DNA from: a virus
Taxonomy: Duplodnaviria; Heunggongvirae; Uroviricota; Caudoviricetes
Length of the DNA stretch: 8,475 nucleotides
Direction: 5' to 3' (one strand)
Virus record (IMG/VR): IMGVR_UViG_2648501235_000008
Both the position numbers and the translations under genes were made by a program. Position 1 is the first letter of the stretch. Every line of letters begins with the position of its first letter. The notes below the pieces were generated by a model. That model saw only the letters and a list, made by a program, of their open reading frames with translations. It made no database searches and was not told the DNA's origin. Positions 1 to 8,475 of this stretch are shown here, in pieces.

Positions 1-112
1 AGTCGCTGTCGTTCTCAAAATCGGTGGAGCTGCATGACAAAGTCATCGGGCATTATCTGAACATAAAACACTATCAATAAGTTGGAGTCATTACCCAAAA
101 CTTAAAAATGGA

Positions 113-1444
113 ATGCAGAAATACATTGATATTTCTCTTTGTTTGAATTTGGCTTTGTTAGATTTAAATGTCATTTTAGGTGATAAAGAGCCACAAAATA
201 GAGCTTTGGAAGGTTTGAAATCTTTAATTAAACAGTCCGATGGAATGTCTGTTCTAATTGAAAGATTTAGAAGCAGTAATTTGATTCGTCATAATCTAGT
301 GTCTTGGCCTTTAGCTAACTATACTAAATATAAAGGAGATCTTACTGAGGAGAATTTATACAGTAAGATGCATGGTATTCCACTTGATAATGATAAATTA
401 AATAAAACCCCTAGATATATTCATGCTGATGAAAAGCAGCTTTTCGATTTGATTGATGCTCTTCATACAAGAAAACTACATAAGTTTACGCATGAAAATA
501 AGCATCACTTAAAAAATTGCTCTGTTACTAAGATAAAAGATAATAAAGCTCTTGAAATAAAGGTAGGAATTGATGATAGAAGTGGTAATGACACAATAAA
601 AGTTGCGTTGGCAAATATGAGAGTTGAACGTCGTAATATTGAAAGTGCTTGCAGAAAAGATCAGTCTCCAAATTTAAGTTATGAACGACAAAGAAACCTT
701 TATCGTATTCTCAACTCGGCAACTGAAGAAAATGTGCAGATATTACTACTCCCTGAGTTATCAATTCCTGTGTCGTGGTTACCTTTTATGGCAGCACATT
801 CAAGGAGAAAACAAATATCTTTGATTTTCGGATTAGAGCATTGGGTTATTAACGAACGCGCATATAATATTTTGGTTGAAATGCTGCCTTATACTTCAAA
901 CTTTAAACACAAATCCAGTATGTTAGTTTTTCGAGTGAAAAATCATTACGCACCTAGTGAGATTACGATGCTGAATTCTTTAAGGTTAAAAATATCCTCT
1001 CCTAAACCTAGTAAACAACGGTATCATTTGATTAAGTGGAAAAACGTATCATTTTCTACATACAACTGTTTTGAACTGGCTAATATCGAGCATAGAGCAT
1101 TATTTCGTTCGCAGTTGGATATTTTATTTGCTTGCGTATGGAATCAAGATATAAATTATTATCAACATATCACTGAGTCAGCGACACGGGATTTACATTG
1201 TTATGTGGCTCAATCAAATACTTCGCATTATGGCGGTTCTTGTGTTCTACAACCGACCAGTAGCACTATTTCAAATAAGATATATGTAAAAGGTGGGGAA
1301 AACCATTGCATCCTAACTACTACTTTAAATATATATGCATTGAGAGAGGCTCAATATCGTTCATTCAGAATTAACTCCGATACTATTAAACACAATCCTC
1401 CAGGGTTTGACTATAATGCTCTATTAGAGCGAGGTGAGAAATGA
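113..1444 (+). CDS. Hypothetical 443-aa protein: unassigned N-terminal region (about aa 1-190) plus C-terminal carbon-nitrogen hydrolase (nitrilase-superfamily)-like domain; candidate defense effector
   Basis: Long ORF in the only AT-rich stretch of the window. Manual motif reading: hydrophobic strand then LLLPE (E215, nt 755-757); ISLIFG strand; FRVKNHYAPSE (K276 nt 938-940, E283 nt 959-961); FSTYNCFE (C319 nt 1067-1069); DILFACVWN; YVAQSN...GGSCVLQP. Order and spacing fit the nitrilase-superfamily E-K-E-C tetrad. No convincing SD before ATG 113, so the start is uncertain. Stop overlaps the next start (ATGA at 1441-1444). Confidence 0.7.
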   Translation: MQKYIDISLCLNLALLDLNVILGDKEPQNRALEGLKSLIKQSDGMSVLIERFRSSNLIRHNLVSWPLANYTKYKGDLTEENLYSKMHGIPLDNDKLNKTPRYIHADEKQLFDLIDALHTRKLHKFTHENKHHLKNCSVTKIKDNKALEIKVGIDDRSGNDTIKVALANMRVERRNIESACRKDQSPNLSYERQRNLYRILNSATEENVQILLLPELSIPVSWLPFMAAHSRRKQISLIFGLEHWVINERAYNILVEMLPYTSNFKHKSSMLVFRVKNHYAPSEITMLNSLRLKISSPKPSKQRYHLIKWKNVSFSTYNCFELANIEHRALFRSQLDILFACVWNQDINYYQHITESATRDLHCYVAQSNTSHYGGSCVLQPTSSTISNKIYVKGGENHCILTTTLNIYALREAQYRSFRINSDTIKHNPPGFDYNALLERGEK

Positions 1445-2130
1445 GTAGCTTTTGGGAAGGTATTTTGTCATCAAGCATTTCATTTGCAATTATTGGATTT
1501 GTTTGTAAGGCTTTTTTACAACATATTGATAAAAGAGAGTTAGAATCATTTAAAAATAAGTTGAAATATGAAAGTGAACAGAGAATTAAAGAGGATGAAC
1601 GTGCTTATAATTTTAAAAAAGCAAGAGATCTTGAAATCGGACGTTGGGGGTTAACATTACTTAGTGCTGCAAATGGTTTTTTAGGAAGGCTATGTTATAT
1701 TAAAGATCACAATGACCTATCGTCGGATCAATATTATATTGATAGTACAAGATTCTATCTATGCCAATATTTTTGCTGGGTACATCAATTCAGGAAAAAT
1801 AGAGATTCATCTGTATTTTCACCAACTAATGATGAAATGTTAATAACTGAATTAATCAAAAATATTTCTATAGCCCTACGAGAGAACGATATTGGTTTTC
1901 CTTGTATTAGATCTCTTGAACAAAAGTATATAGGTGAAAGCCTTAGCATTGGTGCTGAATGTATGTCCTATAAAGATTTTATCGATTCTAAAGTATTAGA
2001 AAACTATGCACCTCTAAATGATTTTGTTGAAGCAATTCTACAAAATAATAATAAAGATTATATCGATAAACTCGTTATCCCATTCCAAGATCTCAAGACC
2101 AGATTTGATGCGGCATTACAAAATAAATGA
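1441..2130 (+). CDS. Hypothetical 229-aa protein with N-terminal hydrophobic membrane-anchor-like segment; operon partner of the upstream gene
   Basis: ATG at 1441 overlaps the upstream TGA (ATGA). Good SD GAGG at 1431-1434, 6 nt before the ATG. Residues about 6-27 (WEGILSSSISFAIIGFVCKAFL) are hydrophobic, followed by a charged, probably helical region. Same AT-rich composition as the upstream gene. No recognisable catalytic motif. Confidence 0.65.
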   Translation: MSSFWEGILSSSISFAIIGFVCKAFLQHIDKRELESFKNKLKYESEQRIKEDERAYNFKKARDLEIGRWGLTLLSAANGFLGRLCYIKDHNDLSSDQYYIDSTRFYLCQYFCWVHQFRKNRDSSVFSPTNDEMLITELIKNISIALRENDIGFPCIRSLEQKYIGESLSIGAECMSYKDFIDSKVLENYAPLNDFVEAILQNNNKDYIDKLVIPFQDLKTRFDAALQNK

Positions 2131-2148
2131 TTTTTTTACCTGCGCGCA

Positions 2149-2167
2149 ATGCTCTCCCCGCCTCGCC
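2149..2167. other. cos cohesive-end core of P2/P4 type
   Basis: Minus strand of 2149-2167 reads GGCGAGGCGGGGAGAGCAT, 17 of 19 identical to the P2/P4 cohesive end GGCGAGGCGGGGAAAGCAC as I recall it. It sits just beyond the psu stop, where P4 carries cos. Confidence 0.55.
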
Positions 2168-2190
2168 CGCCCGCTTTGCGGGGCGGTTTT
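2165..2190 (+). terminator. GC-rich bulged hairpin followed by TTTT, terminator-like, overlapping the cos region
   Basis: gcccgcccgc-ttt-gcggggcgg then tttt (2187-2190), 35 nt after the ORF2 stop. The stem has one bulge. It may instead be part of the cos recognition region. Confidence 0.3.
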
Positions 2191-2212
2191 AATGCAGTTG
2201 CACTGACACGCT

Positions 2213-2240
2213 CAGACCGCGCCGGGAATGGCGCGGTCTG
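2213..2240. repeat. Perfect 11-bp inverted repeat with 6-nt loop
   Basis: cagaccgcgcc (2213-2223), loop gggaat, ggcgcggtctg (2230-2240). No flanking T-tract on either strand. Possibly a cos-flanking terminase recognition element or an RNA stability hairpin. Confidence 0.5.
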
Positions 2241-2270
2241 CAGAAAATGAGGCAGGGAAACGCATGCAAA

Positions 2271-2301
2271 GCCATGCACCTTATCGATGCATGGCTTTTT
2301 T
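2271..2301 (+). terminator. Rho-independent terminator between the convergent cargo operon and psu
   Basis: Stem gccatgca (2271-2278), 9-nt loop, tgcatggc (2288-2295), then TTTTTT (2296-2301). An A-run upstream (2268-2270) gives partial bidirectional character. Confidence 0.5.
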
Positions 2302-2331
2302 CAGTAAAAACAGGCGGATTTTCGGGGAATT

Positions 2332-2904
2332 TTACACAGACTGACGTGATGCCAGTTGCGCACTTTTACGCGAAAAAATCATGTTCTGCGCAGGGGTGAA
2401 TTTTTCACGGCTGTCATCCACCGAAGCCGCGTCAGGCCTGAATCCGATGGTCGTTAAAATGTCGCTATCCTGTGCGGAATAATTAATTTTTTCACCCTTC
2501 GCAAGCCAGGACAGGAGGGCTTCACGCAGGGCATCTGTGGCACGCTGTATGGCACAGTTTCGGGCAATGGCCGTCAGCTCACTGTAGCCCATCAGCTCCG
2601 GTGCCAGTGCCGCCGCCAGTGCTGTGCCGTGCTGCTGCATAAAATCATTCAGCCGGTCGCGGATGCTGATGTGCTGAACGGCTTCATGCGAACGAATATA
2701 ACGACCGGCAGCCTGATTCACCTGCCATTTTCTGACTTCGATAATATTGCGTAATTCGTCCAGGCGACTGACGTTTCTTCCTTCCCCTGACAGAAGCCGC
2801 AGATATTCCTGTTCGGCCGCAGCCAGCTCATTTTTGCGTTGCAGCCATGCTGCTTTGTTATTCTGACAGGTGTCAAAGGCCTGCTGTAAGGCTGTGCTTT
2901 CCAT
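2332..2904 (-). CDS. psu: Psu, polarity suppression / capsid decoration protein of P4-like satellite
   Basis: 190-aa ORF, the length of P4 Psu. N-terminus MESTALQQAFDTCQNNKAAWLQRKNELAAAEQEYL matches Psu as I recall it. Last gene of a sid-delta-psu arrangement. Confidence 0.9.
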   Translation of the reverse strand: MESTALQQAFDTCQNNKAAWLQRKNELAAAEQEYLRLLSGEGRNVSRLDELRNIIEVRKWQVNQAAGRYIRSHEAVQHISIRDRLNDFMQQHGTALAAALAPELMGYSELTAIARNCAIQRATDALREALLSWLAKGEKINYSAQDSDILTTIGFRPDAASVDDSREKFTPAQNMIFSRKSAQLASRQSV

Positions 2905-2977
2905 CGTTATCTCTTTCTCATCATGCTGAAGAATAAAAATACGGTGTGCGGCGACGGCCGGTGTTAACCGGCAGCCC

Positions 2978-3478
2978 TCATTCCAGACGCAGCGAATATG
3001 ATTGTGTTTTTAAGCGTACTGGCGGCAGTTCCTGTTTTTCATGCAGGCTTTCTGCCAGTTCGTCCGGCGTGACCGGGCGGACAATAAAACGGTTGATGGT
3101 CTGAAGCGTTTTAAACACCAGACCACATCCCGGATCCGTGCACACATAAAAACGCTCGGTGACTTCCTGAGACAGACGCCGCGATGTTCTTGACAGTGCA
3201 AGGCCTTTACATCTCCGACAACAATATCCGGTAACAAGCATTCTTTTCGGGCGTTTCATACTGCCGGAGGCTGACGTCAGTGAATCGCGGTATCTCTGTT
3301 TGCCTGAAATGTATTCCATTCCTGAATCTTTACTGTCAGAGAAAAAGCTTTCACTCGCTTCAAATGTCGCAGAGCAATAAATATTCCGGCACTGTGCAAT
3401 CATTATCTTGGTGCCATCGTCCATGAAATGTGCGCGGCGGGTGTGAGCAACATGTCCACACGACGGGCAGTAAATCAT
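2978..3478 (-). CDS. delta: Delta, late-gene transcriptional activator with tandem Ogr-type zinc-finger repeats
   Basis: 166 aa with two Cys-rich Ogr-like repeats (CPSCG...C...YC and CCRRC...C...GC). Start overlaps the sid stop (ATGA at 3475-3478). Confidence 0.9.
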   Translation of the reverse strand: MIYCPSCGHVAHTRRAHFMDDGTKIMIAQCRNIYCSATFEASESFFSDSKDSGMEYISGKQRYRDSLTSASGSMKRPKRMLVTGYCCRRCKGLALSRTSRRLSQEVTERFYVCTDPGCGLVFKTLQTINRFIVRPVTPDELAESLHEKQELPPVRLKTQSYSLRLE

Positions 3479-4209
3479 GACAGCAGTCCTCTGGCCTTAA
3501 GCACTGCTCCCTGCTGGTCTATTTTGTCCTGCCACACCTTGCGCTGTGCCGGTGTGCCTGCCACCTCATAATCCATGTGAGGAAGTGTTGCCGCTGACAG
3601 TCCGGTCAGCCGGAGAACCGGCTCGCCGGTGAGGCTGATTTGCATCTGTTTAATTTTCTGTTCCAGCGATGATTTCACCTGCTGCATGACAGCCTTTTCC
3701 GGTGCGACGTAGCCCTGATGGCCGGTGGTGTTGGCGAGCGGATTTTCCTGTACCAGAATGCTCAGATGCATTGCCCGGACAAGCGCCTCACAGGTTTCAT
3801 TCAGGGCGTGTTCCAGCTCATGCTCTGCATACAGACTCAGAAGGTGATGATGTGCCTTCCGGTAGGCGGTGGCCGTGCTGTCACACGCCCCTTTCAGGCG
3901 TTCACGTTCGAAATTCAGCACCACGGCCAGATTGTCATATTCCTGTACCAGCTCCCGGCGTGCCACGCGCTCAATGTGGCGCTGTTTCAGCTCGTCGCTC
4001 AGGACACCACCGGCTGCACGAAAGGCCGTGCGCCAGTCGTCAGCGTCGTTTCCGTCGGCCTGCGCCAGCGCATTTTTTTCCTGCTCTGCCCGTTCAATGG
4101 CCGTGACGGTCTCATCCATCAGTCGGGCGTTCTCAAGGTGGGCGGCTCTGGCCTTTTCCAGTTGTGCCAGTGCGGGTTGCAGATATTCAGGGATGGTGTT
4201 GTCAGACAT
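3475..4209 (-). CDS. sid: Sid, external capsid size-determination scaffold protein
   Basis: The track ORF runs to 4275, but the internal ATG at 4207-4209 has a strong SD (GAGGAG, complement of 4217-4222, 7-nt spacing) and gives 244 aa beginning MSDNTIPEYLQPALAQL. Helical, Q/E/A/L-rich. Position upstream of delta fits P4. Confidence 0.85.
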   Translation of the reverse strand: MSDNTIPEYLQPALAQLEKARAAHLENARLMDETVTAIERAEQEKNALAQADGNDADDWRTAFRAAGGVLSDELKQRHIERVARRELVQEYDNLAVVLNFERERLKGACDSTATAYRKAHHHLLSLYAEHELEHALNETCEALVRAMHLSILVQENPLANTTGHQGYVAPEKAVMQQVKSSLEQKIKQMQISLTGEPVLRLTGLSAATLPHMDYEVAGTPAQRKVWQDKIDQQGAVLKARGLLS

Positions 4210-4243
4210 TTTCCGGCTCCTCGTCACTTCAGGTTGAGAAAAT

Positions 4244-4299
4244 TGTGACGTACACCGGACAACAACACGACGCATTGCAGATGTGCCAGCCCTGACACA
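4244..4299. promoter_or_regulatory. Divergent late-promoter region with two TGT-N12-ACA dyads (Ogr/Delta-type activator sites)
   Basis: TGT-gacgtacaccgg-ACA at 4244-4261 (right half extends to ACAACAACA) and TGTG-ccagccctga-CACA at 4282-4299. They lie 35-90 bp upstream of the sid start on the minus strand. Confidence 0.45.
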
Positions 4300-4379
4300 G
4301 GAGACTCATCCTCACACCGGCAAGCCAGGAAAAGGTCGCTGGAAAAAACGGCTTACTGTTTATTTTTTTTATATTTTAC

Positions 4380-4483
4380 TGTTCACCTCTGTTCACCATA
4401 AGAAAAAAGATAAGTAATACAGTAAGTTAAAGGGTGAACAATCGCAGTAATGACTGTTCACCGTCTGTTCACCACTGTTCACC
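4380..4483. repeat. TGTTCACC octamer iteron cluster, P4 ori-type (alpha-protein binding sites)
   Basis: Direct TGTTCACC at 4380-4387, 4390-4397, 4455-4462, 4466-4473 and 4476-4483; inverted copy GGTGAACA at 4433-4440. An AT-rich tract (about 4355-4378) is adjacent. The octamer matches the P4 ori/crr type I iteron as I recall it. Confidence 0.6.
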
Positions 4484-4587
4484 CGTTGATGGGCTTTTTG
4501 TGCTGTTTATTACTGTTTGTTTTTATTAATTCGCCGGGAATGAATAAGAAAAAACGATTTGTATTTCACTATAAAAATTACGAATTG

Positions 4588-4617
4588 CTTTAAGTGGCTT
4601 TAAATGACTTTAAGTGG
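4588..4617 (+). repeat. Three tandem 10-bp repeats upstream of vis
   Basis: CTTTAAGTGG (4588-4597), CTTTAAATGA (4598-4607), CTTTAAGTGG (4608-4617). Candidate regulator binding array; function not determinable from sequence. Confidence 0.5.
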
Positions 4618-4762
4618 AGATGAACAAAAAATACACAAGCATTGTAAGGCTGCCGGAACAAATCCCCCCTGTTGCGTCTGCTGAAAATATTCACAAAATA
4701 AAGCGCTACCCGAAGCCGGACGGACTTATCCGGTGCTGTATGGACATTAACGAGGTAGCCCG

Positions 4763-5029
4763 ATGCAAGCTGTTTTTTCTTCCCCGTCTCCCGCCCCTGT
4801 GACGCCACTGATGCCGCTGCCGGACATCACACAGGAGCGTTTTTTACGTCTTCCGGAAGTGATGCACCTGTGCGGCCTGTCACGCTCGACCATCTATGAA
4901 CTCATCCGTAAGGGGGAATTTCCGCCGCAGGTGAGTCTTGGCGGTAAAAATGTGGCCTGGCTGCACTCTGAAGTCACCGCATGGATGGCCGGGCGCATTG
5001 CCGGACGCAAACGGGGGTACGACGCATGA
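4763..5029 (+). CDS. vis: Vis / AlpA-family helix-turn-helix DNA-binding regulator
   Basis: 88 aa, the length of P4 Vis (orf88). Core [30 protein letters not shown] is a typical AlpA-family HTH. SD GAGG at 4751-4754, 7 nt before the ATG. Confidence 0.85.
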
Positions 5030-5625
5030 TGATGCCCGCTCTGCAAAAACTCCCTTTTTCTGGCTTGCCTTTTTCCGGCATTTGCGGATATAGTTTTTCC
5101 GCTGTCGCAAAATCGGCAGCCGGGCGTGGAAACCCGAGCAATCTAACGGCGACATATGACGCGCCATGCGTCTTTTTTTGTGTCGCAATCAACGCCACAG
5201 AGCGCCAGATTATGGTGTGGTGTGTGGTCAGTCGAGCAGATGGCACTCCGTGCATCCTGCCCGCGTCCGCTCATTATGCCGCAGAGTCAATGGTAGCTCA
5301 GGCGGGGCAGCCTCCGGGCTGGCCGGTATCCGTTAGAGCCGGTATTTCCACCCCCGTCTGGGCTATCGCCATCGAGCGTGGAAACTCCGGCGATAGCGTA
5401 ACCTGCTATCTAACGGAGGCTGCCATCATGGCTACAACCCTTACCCCTTCACACCCTGAATTTGTCTTTGTGTTTGCGGCTGTCCGTCGCGCAGACCGTC
5501 ATCCCCGTATCTGCATGCTTCGCACCGTCGCCGGTGATGAACGCAGTGCCCGCCGTTCCCTTGTCCGTGACTATGTGCTCTCCCTTGCTGCCCGTCTGCC
5601 GGTGGTGGAGGTGTCCCGTGCGTAA
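5026..5625 (+). CDS. 199-codon ORF spanning the immunity region (P4 orf199-like); translation uncertain
   Basis: ATGATGATG at 5026-5034 overlaps the vis stop (ATGA). The length equals P4 orf199 from memory. Composition is weakly protein-like and the frame covers the seqA/B/C-like RNA elements, so it may not be translated as a whole. Confidence 0.3.
5065..5094 (+). promoter_or_regulatory. Candidate sigma70 promoter, PLE-like
   Basis: TTGCCT (5065-5070), 18-nt spacer, TATAGT (5089-5094). Lies just downstream of vis and upstream of the seqA-like element. Confidence 0.3.
5124..5416 (+). ncRNA. Immunity-type region with seqA / seqB / seqC-like elements; candidate cI-type regulatory RNA locus
   Basis: Direct copies of GCGTGGAAAC (5124-5133, 5376-5385) and ATCTAACGG (5141-5149, 5408-5416). 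Between them, 5330-5353 (ccgttagagccggtatttccaccc) is the inverted complement of both blocks (CCGTTAGA / TTTCCAC). A 9-bp hairpin (5362-5370 / 5389-5397) encloses the second GCGTGGAAAC. Precise RNA ends cannot be set from sequence. Confidence 0.4.
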
Positions 5626-5905
5626 TAAAAAAGCCCCTCAGACCGTCTCAGCGCGTCATGACGCCCGTGAACACCTCAGCATTGAGGCTTACCATAAGCT
5701 CAACCGCGCCAGCGCCGTATCCCAGTTTGTTGGGGGTGATTTGATTCACCGTGAACTCTCCGGCCTGCATCAGCTCTACATTCCGCATATTTTCAGCTAC
5801 CTGAATGAAGATATTGATTTTGTGCTGAATGAGCTGAAAGCCAAAGGCCTGTGCCGCGATTTTCTCGCCCAGCAGAAAGACCGGGGAGACAGGACGCATG
5901 TTTGA
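5618..5905 (+). CDS. 95-aa protein in the position of P4 epsilon (derepression protein); identity not established
   Basis: GTG start at 5618 with SD GGAGG (5607-5611, 6-nt spacing). The 52 codons upstream in the track ORF (from 5462) are not protein-like and overlap the preceding ORF. The 3' end overlaps the next start. Confidence 0.45.
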
Positions 5906-6353
5906 TTTTCCCCAGCCCGGTGAGATTTACCGTTCTGCCGGTTTTCCCGATGTGGCCGTGGTCGGCATTCTGGAAGACGGTATTCCGTGGGAAATGCCGT
6001 ACCGCTGTCCGGACATTGTCTGGAACCCGTACCGCCGAAAATTCAGTATCCTTGTGCGTATCCTCACTGACGGGCGCACCACAGACATCCCGCTGGGGCG
6101 TTTTCTGCGGGAATTTACCTGTGACCGTCCTGACCTGTTCAAACGCAGCCCCGTAAACCGGCATGCGGTACTGAAAGAAATGGCCGGAGACCCGGAATTA
6201 CAGAAATGGCGGGAGAAATATCTGGATATTTACCCGCAGGACACTGTTCCGGCCAGCCGGGCGGCACCGGTGGCGCGGGAATGGCGGGAAATTCCCCGCA
6301 CGGAGCCTGACCCGGAAATCACCCCGGATAACAGTTACCGCAATTATCTGTAA
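5898..6353 (+). CDS. 151-aa protein, P4 orf151-like
   Basis: Length equals P4 orf151 from memory. Protein-like composition, same strand and operon as alpha. Start overlaps the upstream stop. Confidence 0.6.
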   Translation: MFDFPQPGEIYRSAGFPDVAVVGILEDGIPWEMPYRCPDIVWNPYRRKFSILVRILTDGRTTDIPLGRFLREFTCDRPDLFKRSPVNRHAVLKEMAGDPELQKWREKYLDIYPQDTVPASRAAPVAREWREIPRTEPDPEITPDNSYRNYL

Positions 6354-6488
6354 TTAAAAAACGACACCCGAAAAATTAAATGTGCGTATTCGCGCAGGGA
6401 TACGCACGTCTTCAGGAGACGCAGATATGCCTTATCAGTTAATGCAACCGGCACGGAATGCAGTCATCTGTCACAGGGAGGAAAACAA

Positions 6489-6809
6489 ATGAAAACACCC
6501 TTACCGCCCGTCTTACGCGCTGCCCTTTACCGTCGCGCTGTCGCCTGTGCCTGGCTGACCGTGTGCGAACGTCAGCACCGCTACCCGCATCTCACCCTTG
6601 AATCACTGGAGGCGGCCATCGCCGCTGAGCTGGAGGGCTTTTATCTGCGCCAGCACGGTGAGGAAAAAGGGCGTCAGATAGCCTGTGCCCTGCTGGAAGA
6701 TTTAATGGAATCCGGCCCCCTGAAGGCCGCGCCGTCGCTGTCCTTTCTCGGGCTGGTTGTGATGGATGAACTCTGTGCCCGTCACATAAAAGCGCCGGTA
6801 CTGCACTGA
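6489..6809 (+). CDS. 106-aa hypothetical protein immediately upstream of alpha
   Basis: Strong SD GGGAGG (6475-6480, 7-nt spacing). Stop lies 14 nt before the alpha start. Confidence 0.55.
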
Positions 6810-6823
6810 AGGAGAACAACACC

Positions 6824-8379
6824 ATGAAAATGAACGTAACCGCCACCGTCAGCCATGCGCTCGGCCACTGGCCGCGTATTCTCCCGGCGCTGGGGATTCA
6901 GGTGCTGAAGAACCGTCATCAGCCCTGTCCGGTCTGTGGCGGGAGTGACCGTTTCCGTTTTGATGACAGGGAGGGGCGCGGCACCTGGTACTGCAATCAG
7001 TGTGGTGCCGGTGACGGCCTGAAACTGGTTGAAAAGGTGTTTGGTGTTTCCCCGTCCGATGCGGCCGCAAAGGTGGCTGCCGTGACCGGCAGCCTGCCCC
7101 CTGCTGACCCGGCAGTGACGGCTGCCGCCGGTGCTGAAACAGACGCTGCCCGGAAGAACGCCGCCGCACTGGCACAAACCCTGATGGCGAAAACCCGTCC
7201 CGGAACCGGTAACGCCTACCTGACCCGCAAGGGCTTTCCCGGCCGGGAATGCCGGATGCTGACCGGCACACACAGAGCCGGTGGCGTGAGCTGGCGTGCC
7301 GGTGACCTTGTGGTGCCACTGTATGACGACAGCGGCGAACTGGTTAACCTTCAGTTAATCAGTGCTGACGGCCGTAAGCGCACCCTGAAAGGCGGACAGG
7401 TCAGGGGCACCTGTCACACCCTTGAAGGACAGAATCAGGCCGGAAAACGTCTGTGGATAGCGGAGGGATACGCGACCGCACTTACCGTGCATCACCTGAC
7501 CGGTGAAACGGTGATGGTGGCGCTTTCTTCCGTGAATCTCCTTTCTCTGGCCAGCCTTGCCCGGCAGAAGCATCCGGCCTGTCAGATTGTCCTTGCTGCT
7601 GACCGTGACCTCAGCGGTGACGGCCAGAAAAAAGCCGCCGCAGCCGCAGGTGCGTGTGAAGGTGTTGTTGCCCTGCCGCCGGTCTTCGGTGACTGGAATG
7701 ATGCCTTCACGCAGTACGGCGGGGAAGCCACCCGTAAGGCCATTTATGATGCCATCCGGCCACCGGCTGAAAGCCCGTTCGACACCATGAGCGAAGCGGA
7801 GTTTTCCGCCATGAGTACCAGCGAAAAGGCCATGCGTATCTATGAGCATTACGGCGAGGCGCTCGCGGTCGATGCCAACGGCCAGCTTCTGTCCCGCTAT
7901 GAAAATGGTGTCTGGAAGGTGCTGCCGCCACAGGACTTTGCCCGGGATGTGGCCGGGCTGTTTCAGCGGCTGCGCGCGCCGTTCTCCTCCGGGAAGGTGG
8001 CCTCCGTGGTGGACACCCTGAAGCTGATTATTCCGCAGCAGGAAGCCCCCTCCCGCCGCCTGATTGGCTTTCGTAACGGCGTGCTCGACACGCAGAACGG
8101 CACGTTCCACCCGCACAGTCCGTCACACTGGATGCGCACCCTGTGCGATGTGGATTTCACCCCGCCGGTGGACGGTGAAACGCTGGAGACCCACGCCCCC
8201 GCGTTCTGGCGCTGGCTTGACCGTGCCGCCGGTGGCCGTGCGGAAAAACGCGACGTGATTCTGGCCGCACTGTTTATGGTGCTGGCAAACCGCTACGACT
8301 GGCAGCTCTTTCTGGAGGTGACCGGTCCCGGCGGCAGCGGCAAAAGTATCATGGCCGAAATCGCCACCCTGCTGGCCGG
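6824..8379 (+). CDS. alpha: Alpha primase-helicase (zinc-ribbon, TOPRIM primase, D5-like helicase with Walker A); 3' part absent or interrupted
   Basis: SD GGAG at 6811-6814. N-terminal zinc motif CPVCGGSDRF...WYCNQCG; TOPRIM-like LWIAEGYATALTV and VLAADRD; Walker A GPGGSGKS at 8327-8346. The frame stays open to 8475, but the expected helicase-like character is lost after 8379. Not in the ORF track because no stop occurs in the window. Confidence 0.85.
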
Positions 8380-8475
8380 CTGTCTCTTATACACAAATCC
8401 CCACCCGGGGATTTGTGATGTCTGTCAGTCTGCTTTAGGGGGACTCTTTCCATCCGGTAGTTTCCTTCCTCCCCG
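8380..8475. mobile_element. Putative terminus of an IS4-family (IS50-like) insertion sequence
   Basis: CTGTCTCTTATACACA at 8380-8395 is identical to the first 16 nt of the Tn5 mosaic end and 15 of 16 to the IS50 outside end, from memory. It is followed by a perfect palindrome cacaaatcccc-acc-ggggatttgtg. The junction coincides with the loss of alpha coding character. Confidence 0.35.

Follow-up and report, generated by a model that had tools for sequence, protein, structure and literature searches.

The question raised by this locus was whether an AT-rich pair of open reading frames (ORFs) in a P4-like satellite encodes an anti-phage system that has not been described before. The locus lies in the IMG/VR virus record IMGVR_UViG_2648501235_000008 (Duplodnaviria; Heunggongvirae; Uroviricota; Caudoviricetes), of which the whole stretch of 8,475 nucleotides (nt), referred to here as the window, was analyzed. 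An earlier note on this DNA had proposed that positions 113-2130 form a two-gene operon for an undescribed defence system, composed of a CN-hydrolase-type enzyme, the N-terminal region of which was left unassigned, and a small membrane-anchored partner. The analysis gave a different answer: the window very probably contains a copy of a known anti-phage system, i.e., a reverse transcriptase (RT)-nitrilase plus a transmembrane (TM) protein, that was disrupted by the insertion sequence (IS) IS1. Earlier publications already cover the system itself, its occurrence in the P4 hotspot, the protection that it gives against phage and the enzymology of the RT.

First, the pair begins next to the end of an IS. 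Window positions 1-95 were identical (95/95) to the final 95 nt of an entire 768-bp IS1 (locus L018), the two ends of which form the expected imperfect inverted repeat, and a 112-nt query from the window start matched 9,386 E. coli records annotated as IS1A/IS1B transposase. Only this right-hand IS1 junction lies within the window. Second, the DNA that follows was found in the interior of a longer gene. Positions 95-2130 were identical (2036/2036) to nt 1528-3563 of the intact cassette of strain Res13 (locus L005), which consists of a 2877-bp gene annotated as "RNA-directed DNA polymerase" and a 690-bp partner (RefSeq WP_000628823.1 and WP_000094232.1). The 443 amino acids (aa) of ORF1 (113-1444, + strand) were identical (443/443) to residues 516-958 of a 958-aa RT-nitrilase (locus L001), and the ATG at 113 is codon 516 of the 958, an internal Met. 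Upstream of the IS1 break, the identical gene runs on for 1527 nt as a single ORF in 18 complete genomes, and the insertion site of the window is nt 1527/1528 of the RT-nitrilase gene, at codon 510. Since the IS1 terminus abuts ORF1 and the DNA is identical to an internal part of an intact gene, the status of ORF1 as a whole gene was rejected. Judged by its sequence, window 96-2130 corresponds to the 3′ 57% of a two-gene "RT-nitrilase + 1TM" cassette.

At the protein level, ORF1 matched the PADLOC profile RT_UG5-nitrilase (PDLC02995) with E = 0 and 1069 bits at profile positions 516-958 of 958, and a second RT_UG5-nitrilase match was obtained at 1.1e-118. The intact protein matched PADLOC RT_UG5-nitrilase over 1-958 with 2254 bits and contains a Pfam RVT_1 domain at 171-328 (43.7 bits vs. 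a cut-off of 29.6) with the motif YVDD at 298-301. Published HHpred results for the full protein gave RVT_1 at 99-337 and CN_hydrolase, at 99.7%, over 678-929 (Rousset et al. 2022, Table S3; PMC9122126). The RT domain and the YVDD motif of the intact alleles lie wholly upstream of the codon-510 break, and the window encodes no RT domain. ORF1 retains the nitrilase signature residues Glu (LLLPE), Lys (FRVKNH) and Cys (YNCFE) at positions 215, 276 and 319, i.e., 730, 791 and 834 of the full-length protein; going by the signature of the nitrilase superfamily, these would form the catalytic triad. ORF2 (1441-2130, + strand, 229 aa) matched PADLOC RTasTM over 1-229 of 229 (5.2e-164 and 1.2e-122), is preceded by the good Shine-Dalgarno sequence GAGGTGA and contains one hydrophobic helix at residues ~8-26 (window 1462-1518), with a Kyte-Doolittle maximum of 1.94. 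A single-sequence AlphaFold2 model of ORF2 was all-helical and unreliable, with a mean predicted local distance difference test (pLDDT) score of 39.1.

Searches of Pfam, NCBIfam and PHROGs with both ORFs returned only a sub-threshold CN_hydrolase match of ORF1 (PF00795; 12.8 bits, under the gathering cut-off of 23.2) and weak RT-family PHROGs, and sequence searches of the PDB with ORF1 and ORF2 found no relatives. A housekeeping nitrilase of the CN_hydrolase family was considered for ORF1 and rejected on the sub-threshold Pfam score, with neither an NCBIfam match nor a PDB sequence relative.

Third, the cassette could be identified with a published one. Rousset et al. 2022 surveyed the psu-int hotspot of P4-like satellites and reported "RT-nitrilase + 1TM" (pFR76, from E. 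coli E101), with the remark '1 TM in protein 2', among the defence systems validated in E. coli K-12, expressed from its native promoter and assayed at room temperature (PMC9122126). ORF2 was identical (229/229) to protein 2 of pFR76 (Table S2A; PMC9122126). Of pFR76 protein 1, the first 399 residues were compared; over this part it was identical (399/399) to what related loci encode in the upstream half of this gene, and the allele that provides this match is the one that matches ORF1 443/443 at residues 516-958. The cassette bears the DefenseFinder-style catalogue name Rst_RT-nitrilase-Tm. Mestre et al. 2022 described the group as UG5-large, of class 3 of the UG/Abi RTs, with TM cluster 1858, and stated that the TM protein is necessary (PMC9226505). 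Neville et al. 2026 purified the full-length protein as "DRT5L" and found template-free DNA synthesis that is protein-primed, with the DNA covalently attached (PMC13275509). The DRT5L sequence in the supplement of that paper was identical to the intact RT-nitrilase at 926/958 residues (96.7%), read through the noise of optical character recognition of the PDF (PMC13275509). On this alignment, it was ruled out that DRT5L is a different protein. With regard to membership of the UG5-large RT-nitrilase + TM class, the nitrilase and RTasTM were found in the window and the RT domain (YxDD) was not. Because the window has no RT domain, the locus was filed as a disrupted remnant of a UG5-large member and not as a working member.

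Several statements of the earlier note have to be revised accordingly. The supposed operon comprises a single whole gene and the 3′ 47% of a second one; ORF1 is that remnant, which opens at an internal Met with IS1 upstream, and its N-terminal region, left unassigned in the note, is the linker that joins the RT domain to the nitrilase domain. The enzyme type and the membrane partner had both been sensed correctly, but ORF1 is a truncated fragment and not a whole enzyme. The PADLOC search that had been proposed as a check was run and matched both proteins confidently to a described system, so that the claim of novelty fell. The biological weight of the locus is small, since what it holds is a disrupted copy of a system known before. 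As a caution for similar cases, an ORF that starts near a contig edge beside an IS end may be a gene fragment; moreover, Pfam and NCBIfam are blind to both proteins, whereas a defence-specific library names both instantly.

The distribution of the cassette was determined among complete E. coli genomes. About 1,080 of them matched a query that included the 201-nt cos-psu spacer, and 33 matched the cargo. In intact relatives, the gene order is tRNA-Leu, int, RT-nitrilase, TM, cos, psu, delta, sid ... alpha, with int 92 nt upstream of the RT gene in 20 related loci and adjoining tRNA-Leu where the flank was fetched. In the window, the cos/psu side of the hotspot is present, and the int side lies beyond IS1, outside the window. 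The whole cassette was found in 31 of the 33 genomes, with RT and TM together at the same place; in the other two, nothing beyond a 5′ stump of the RT gene is left. The cargo was 99.8-100% identical among carriers while their int and psu alleles differ, and the backbone of the window was just 97.8-98.9% identical to that of locus L001. Near-identical cargo on varying backbones fits a spread of the cassette as a unit among P4-like satellites, an exchange that the earlier note had suggested looking for in related satellites. The cargo is most likely horizontally acquired DNA of anti-phage origin in the cos/psu-to-int hotspot of a P4-like satellite integrated at tRNA-Leu. The corresponding proposal of the note agrees with the gene order of the intact relatives and with the small share of genomes matching the cos-psu flank that carry this cargo. 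As the note had also said, P4 itself carries gop-beta-cII at this cos-proximal position; these genes are likewise anti-phage, and their proteins are unrelated to those of the window.

The layout given in the note was confirmed for both ORFs, for their ATGA overlap at 1441-1444, for the convergence of the cargo on psu and for the distance to cos, the cohesive end of which starts 19 nt past the ORF2 stop. The statement that the pair is the only AT-rich block held in part: the cargo is strongly AT-rich, with a guanine plus cytosine (GC) content of 32.2% over 96-2130 vs. 55.8% over 2131-8475, but a short intergenic stretch at 4351-4650, from sid to an AlpA-like gene, also dips to 33%.

Damage to the RT-nitrilase gene is frequent among carriers. 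The gene was damaged in 15 of the 33 genomes, by at least eight independent lesions (Table 1), and intact with 958 codons in 18 (10 of them fetched and 8 assigned from identical scores). The insertion site of the window is none of the sites in the 15 damaged genomes. Five other independent IS events have hit this gene in complete genomes, and three of these are simple insertions with target duplications. The TM gene was intact wherever it was present among the 33 genomes. By our own arithmetic, the finding of nine out of nine lesions in the RT rather than the TM gene (2877 vs. 690 bp) is not significant (p ~0.14). Compared with int, psu and TM together, the corresponding value is p ~0.004; the AT preference of IS1, selection acting on the backbone genes and homopolymer errors that may underlie the annotated frameshifts all confound this value. 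IS1 prefers AT-rich DNA as a target. That the repeated loss of the RT-nitrilase was selected rather than neutral is unlikely. Under selection, carrying the RT-nitrilase may be a burden, or the protein may be autotoxic, at body temperature (the published clone was assayed at room temperature only); alternatively, the membrane protein, or a remnant made of nitrilase and TM, may retain its own function. The broken copies could equally be due to cost, the preference of IS1 for AT-rich DNA, homopolymer sequencing errors or ordinary prophage-like decay. With nearly half of the copies in complete genomes broken, a census of defence systems based on counts of genes or hits can make functional immunity look more widespread than it is.

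The annotation of such copies varied. In AF14 (L002 7049-8125), RefSeq/PGAP calls the 3′ remnant split off by IS1 a 'hypothetical protein' (WP_016234064.1, 358 aa), an error of the same kind as the reading of ORF1 in the earlier note. In Table S1A of Rousset et al., the mouse M-strain loci NZ_CP010186, CP010196, CP010206 and CP010213 are given as a lone 'hypothetical WP_000094232' (PMC9122126), because the RT pseudogene has no protein record; thus, a protein-based census of the hotspot under-describes this system. In AF14 (L002 9612-10609) and FDAARGOS_944 (L003 8139-9137), the satellite ends just past psu at a degenerate IS1 plus an IS4 fragment, followed by chromosomal genes. These two carriers are decayed P4 remnants that still hold the defence cargo region.

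How the intact system may act, and what the window lacks of it, can be considered from its relatives. The pFR76 "RT-nitrilase + 1TM" is the same cassette at the same place between int and cos/psu of a P4-like satellite; its clone is intact and protective at room temperature, whereas the copy in the window is cut by IS1 at codon 510, with the RT part outside the window. DRT5L is the same E. coli RT-nitrilase sequence and makes protein-primed, template-free DNA, but that work covered in vitro DNA synthesis by the full-length 958 aa without the TM partner, whereas the window encodes residues 516-958 only (PMC13275509). DRT11 from Sinorhizobium meliloti RMO17 belongs to the same UG5-large family and is an RT-nitrilase fusion in which neither RT nor nitrilase can be dispensed with and the phenotype resembles abortive infection; in contrast to the E. 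coli cassette, it has no TM partner and is located on a megaplasmid, and its sequence is presumably divergent (PMC13436386).

DRT type 1 (UG1; Drt1a with or without Drt1b, Klebsiella pneumoniae) shares the order RT, linker and C-terminal nitrilase, sometimes with a downstream TM protein, and provides the mechanistic model, in which semirandom DNA is primed on a serine and forms adducts, the protein lies dormant as a filament, the nitrilase is the effector and infection is abortive. It is nevertheless a different RT clade, as the intact protein scored 2254 bits on the UG5 model vs. 96 bits on Drt1a, and the priming serine is reported not to be conserved in other class 3 RTs. Membership of DRT type 1 was rejected, ORF1 matching Drt1a over the nitrilase part only (1.5e-10) and ORF2 matching no Drt1b model at E <= 1. 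UG5-small, with RT and nitrilase on separate polypeptides, superficially resembles the state produced by IS1 here. It is, however, a natural architecture with its own starts and no TM partner, and its RT reaches the counterpart of residue ~644 rather than stopping at 510.

In both DRT1 and DRT11, the catalytic residues of RT and nitrilase are needed, and the phenotype is abortive-infection-like. In DRT1, DNA adducts build tetramers and filaments in which the nitrilase stays dormant as long as phage functions, e.g., T4 Dda, do not release it, and RT-dead DRT1 is monomeric, non-toxic and non-protective. By analogy, the DNA adduct of the intact E. coli system would drive an oligomerization that arms the nitrilase effector while holding it dormant; a phage replication function would then free the nitrilase, and the infected cell would be sacrificed. 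The membrane partner would be a required component of the intact system. In the window, IS1 at codon 510 would part the RT domain (171-328) from the linker and nitrilase, and the 3′ piece would be left with neither its own promoter nor a usable start. Since RT activity is needed in DRT1 and DRT11 and RT-dead DRT1 is inert, the copy in the window is most likely a dead remnant, of which the TM gene alone is still intact. Provided that it is an IS1-disrupted copy of the known system, these relatives make it quite likely to be non-functional.

Some points weigh against this account. The C-terminal half of the E101 protein was compared with the window by way of the noisy DRT5L text, the PADLOC profile and the RefSeq alleles, and not letter for letter against pFR76, for which the comparison of protein 1 covered residues 1-399. 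The loss of function is argued by analogy with DRT1 and DRT11. Transcription that enters from IS1 could still lead to expression of ORF2 and maybe of a nitrilase fragment. The single junction in the window fits a simple insertion, with the 5′ half and int elsewhere, and a deletion alike. Finally, the contig has a chimeric right end (adapter at 8380-8395), which leaves its assembly quality not wholly beyond doubt.

Of the other explanations, the one that survives best, although it is very improbable, is that the remnant is still active, either through read-out from IS1 that expresses the linker-nitrilase and TM without RT or through reassembly of the split halves as in UG5-small. In its favour, ORF2 is undamaged and has a strong ribosome-binding site, the signature residues of the nitrilase are in place, natural UG5-small systems encode the nitrilase separately, and the TM gene has been spared in every carrier that has it. 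Yet a consensus scan of 1-112 found no promoter-like site, and in a promoter and terminator scan of 1-2400, promoter-like sites were scarcer than in shuffled sequences and absent from the IS1 junction. Nor does a Shine-Dalgarno-like sequence or convincing ribosome-binding site precede the ATG at 113. The requirement for RT activity in DRT1 and DRT11 and the inert, monomeric state of RT-dead DRT1 also argue against it, as does the UG5-small RT profile, which makes a break at 510 unlike the natural split. The sparing of a 690-bp gene is not statistically unusual for its size.

An assembly artefact at the IS1/RT junction, with the gene intact in the real genome, was judged slightly less probable still. 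The window is an entire short-read contig (JHTL01000062.1, draft assembly GCA_001266445.1), its other end is chimeric (an adapter-like 16-mer, then 80 unrelated bases), and the exact junction occurred in none of 5,426 complete E. coli genomes, in which the best matches reached 96.5% and were unrelated IS1 ends. On the other hand, the junction lies exactly at the terminal base of IS1 with no adapter in between, which is typical of transposition and not of a random chimera. The ~95 nt of repeat at the contig end are the usual mark of a contig that meets a repeat; this contig breaks inside the IS1 repeat, as is usual for such contigs. Furthermore, IS1, ISEc60 and IS3 events are found in the same gene of other strains. 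The idea of a complete, undescribed two-gene system, in which a CN-hydrolase enzyme bearing a novel N-terminal region is paired with a small membrane protein, has next to no probability left, because the open, ATGA-overlapping ORFs, which look unknown without defence-specific profiles for want of a significant Pfam or NCBIfam name, are both named by PADLOC (E = 0; 5e-164) as parts of a published and validated cassette, ORF1 covers just 516-958 of 958 next to an abutting IS1, and the gene runs on upstream in 18 genomes.

Table 1. Features of the window and lesions of the RT-nitrilase gene in complete E. coli genomes. Positions refer to the window unless the RT gene is named.
Feature	Position	Strand	Remarks
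Right end of IS1	1-95	+	insB 3′ end (frame 3); right inverted repeat 73-95; stops at the terminal base of the element
UG5-large RT-nitrilase, 3′ remnant	96-1444	+	codons ~510-958 of 958; linker and nitrilase, no RT domain
C-N hydrolase (nitrilase) domain	587-1411	+	ORF1 ~159-433, full-length ~674-948; PADLOC RTasNitrilase 5.1e-35 over 159-433
RTasTM single-pass membrane partner	1441-2130	+	intact, 229 aa; Mestre cluster 1858; RefSeq WP_000094232.1
P4-type cos cohesive end (19 nt)	2149-2167	-	GGCGAGGCGGGGAGAGCAT on the - strand; 17/19 to P4
Terminator-like GC-rich hairpin, then T run	2167-2186	+	downstream of ORF2; consensus scan
psu (polarity suppression protein)	2332-2904	-	Pfam Psu 1.3e-88; convergent with the cargo; conserved backbone gene bounding the hotspot
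Stop codon	codon 174 of RT gene		five mouse isolates
Annotated frameshifts			JNE170426; FORC_031/254D-1/360D-1
IS1 insertion	nt 1808 of RT gene		two AF14 records
IS1 insertion	nt 305 of RT gene		FDAARGOS_943
ISEc60 insertion	nt 2738 of RT gene		FDAARGOS_944
IS1-bounded truncation	nt 1803 of RT gene		E1739
IS3-bounded truncation	nt 955 of RT gene		A19

The backbone beyond the cargo is that of P4. The DNA of psu, delta and sid was 98.6% identical to P4, with delta matching Ogr_Delta (Pfam) and all three genes on the - strand, and the genes and RNA beyond psu are delta, sid, C4 RNA and alpha. The alignment with P4 ends at window position 2168, which is the end of the linear P4 record X51522 (nt 11624). 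The P4 cos used for comparison with the cohesive end was GGCGAGGCGGGGAAAGCAC, taken from Table S2A of Rousset et al. (PMC9122126). The terminator-like hairpin downstream of ORF2 is weak evidence by itself, with 1 site vs. 0.9 expected.

Rfam identified two RNAs of the P4 immunity region on the + strand, isrK at 5101-5178 (72.5 bits) and the C4 antisense RNA at 5286-5373 (76.2 bits). Both lie inside an ORF at 4981-5625 and a 'Phage_ASH' call at 5026-5625, so that the protein call overlaps known RNA genes. The start codon of sid (3475-4275, - strand) is ambiguous: the ORF has 266 aa from an upstream ATG vs. 244 aa in the source-contig call (3475-4209) and in P4 sid. At the right tip of the window, which is chimeric, homology to P4 alpha (primase-helicase) ends at 8379. 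Positions 8380-8395 read CTGTCTCTTATACACA, a 16-mer that is unique in the window, with 0 occurrences expected by chance, and that we take to be the Nextera/Tn5 mosaic-end adapter. In ~1,300 E. coli genomes, the last 80 nt had a 100% match at an unrelated site that carries no annotation.

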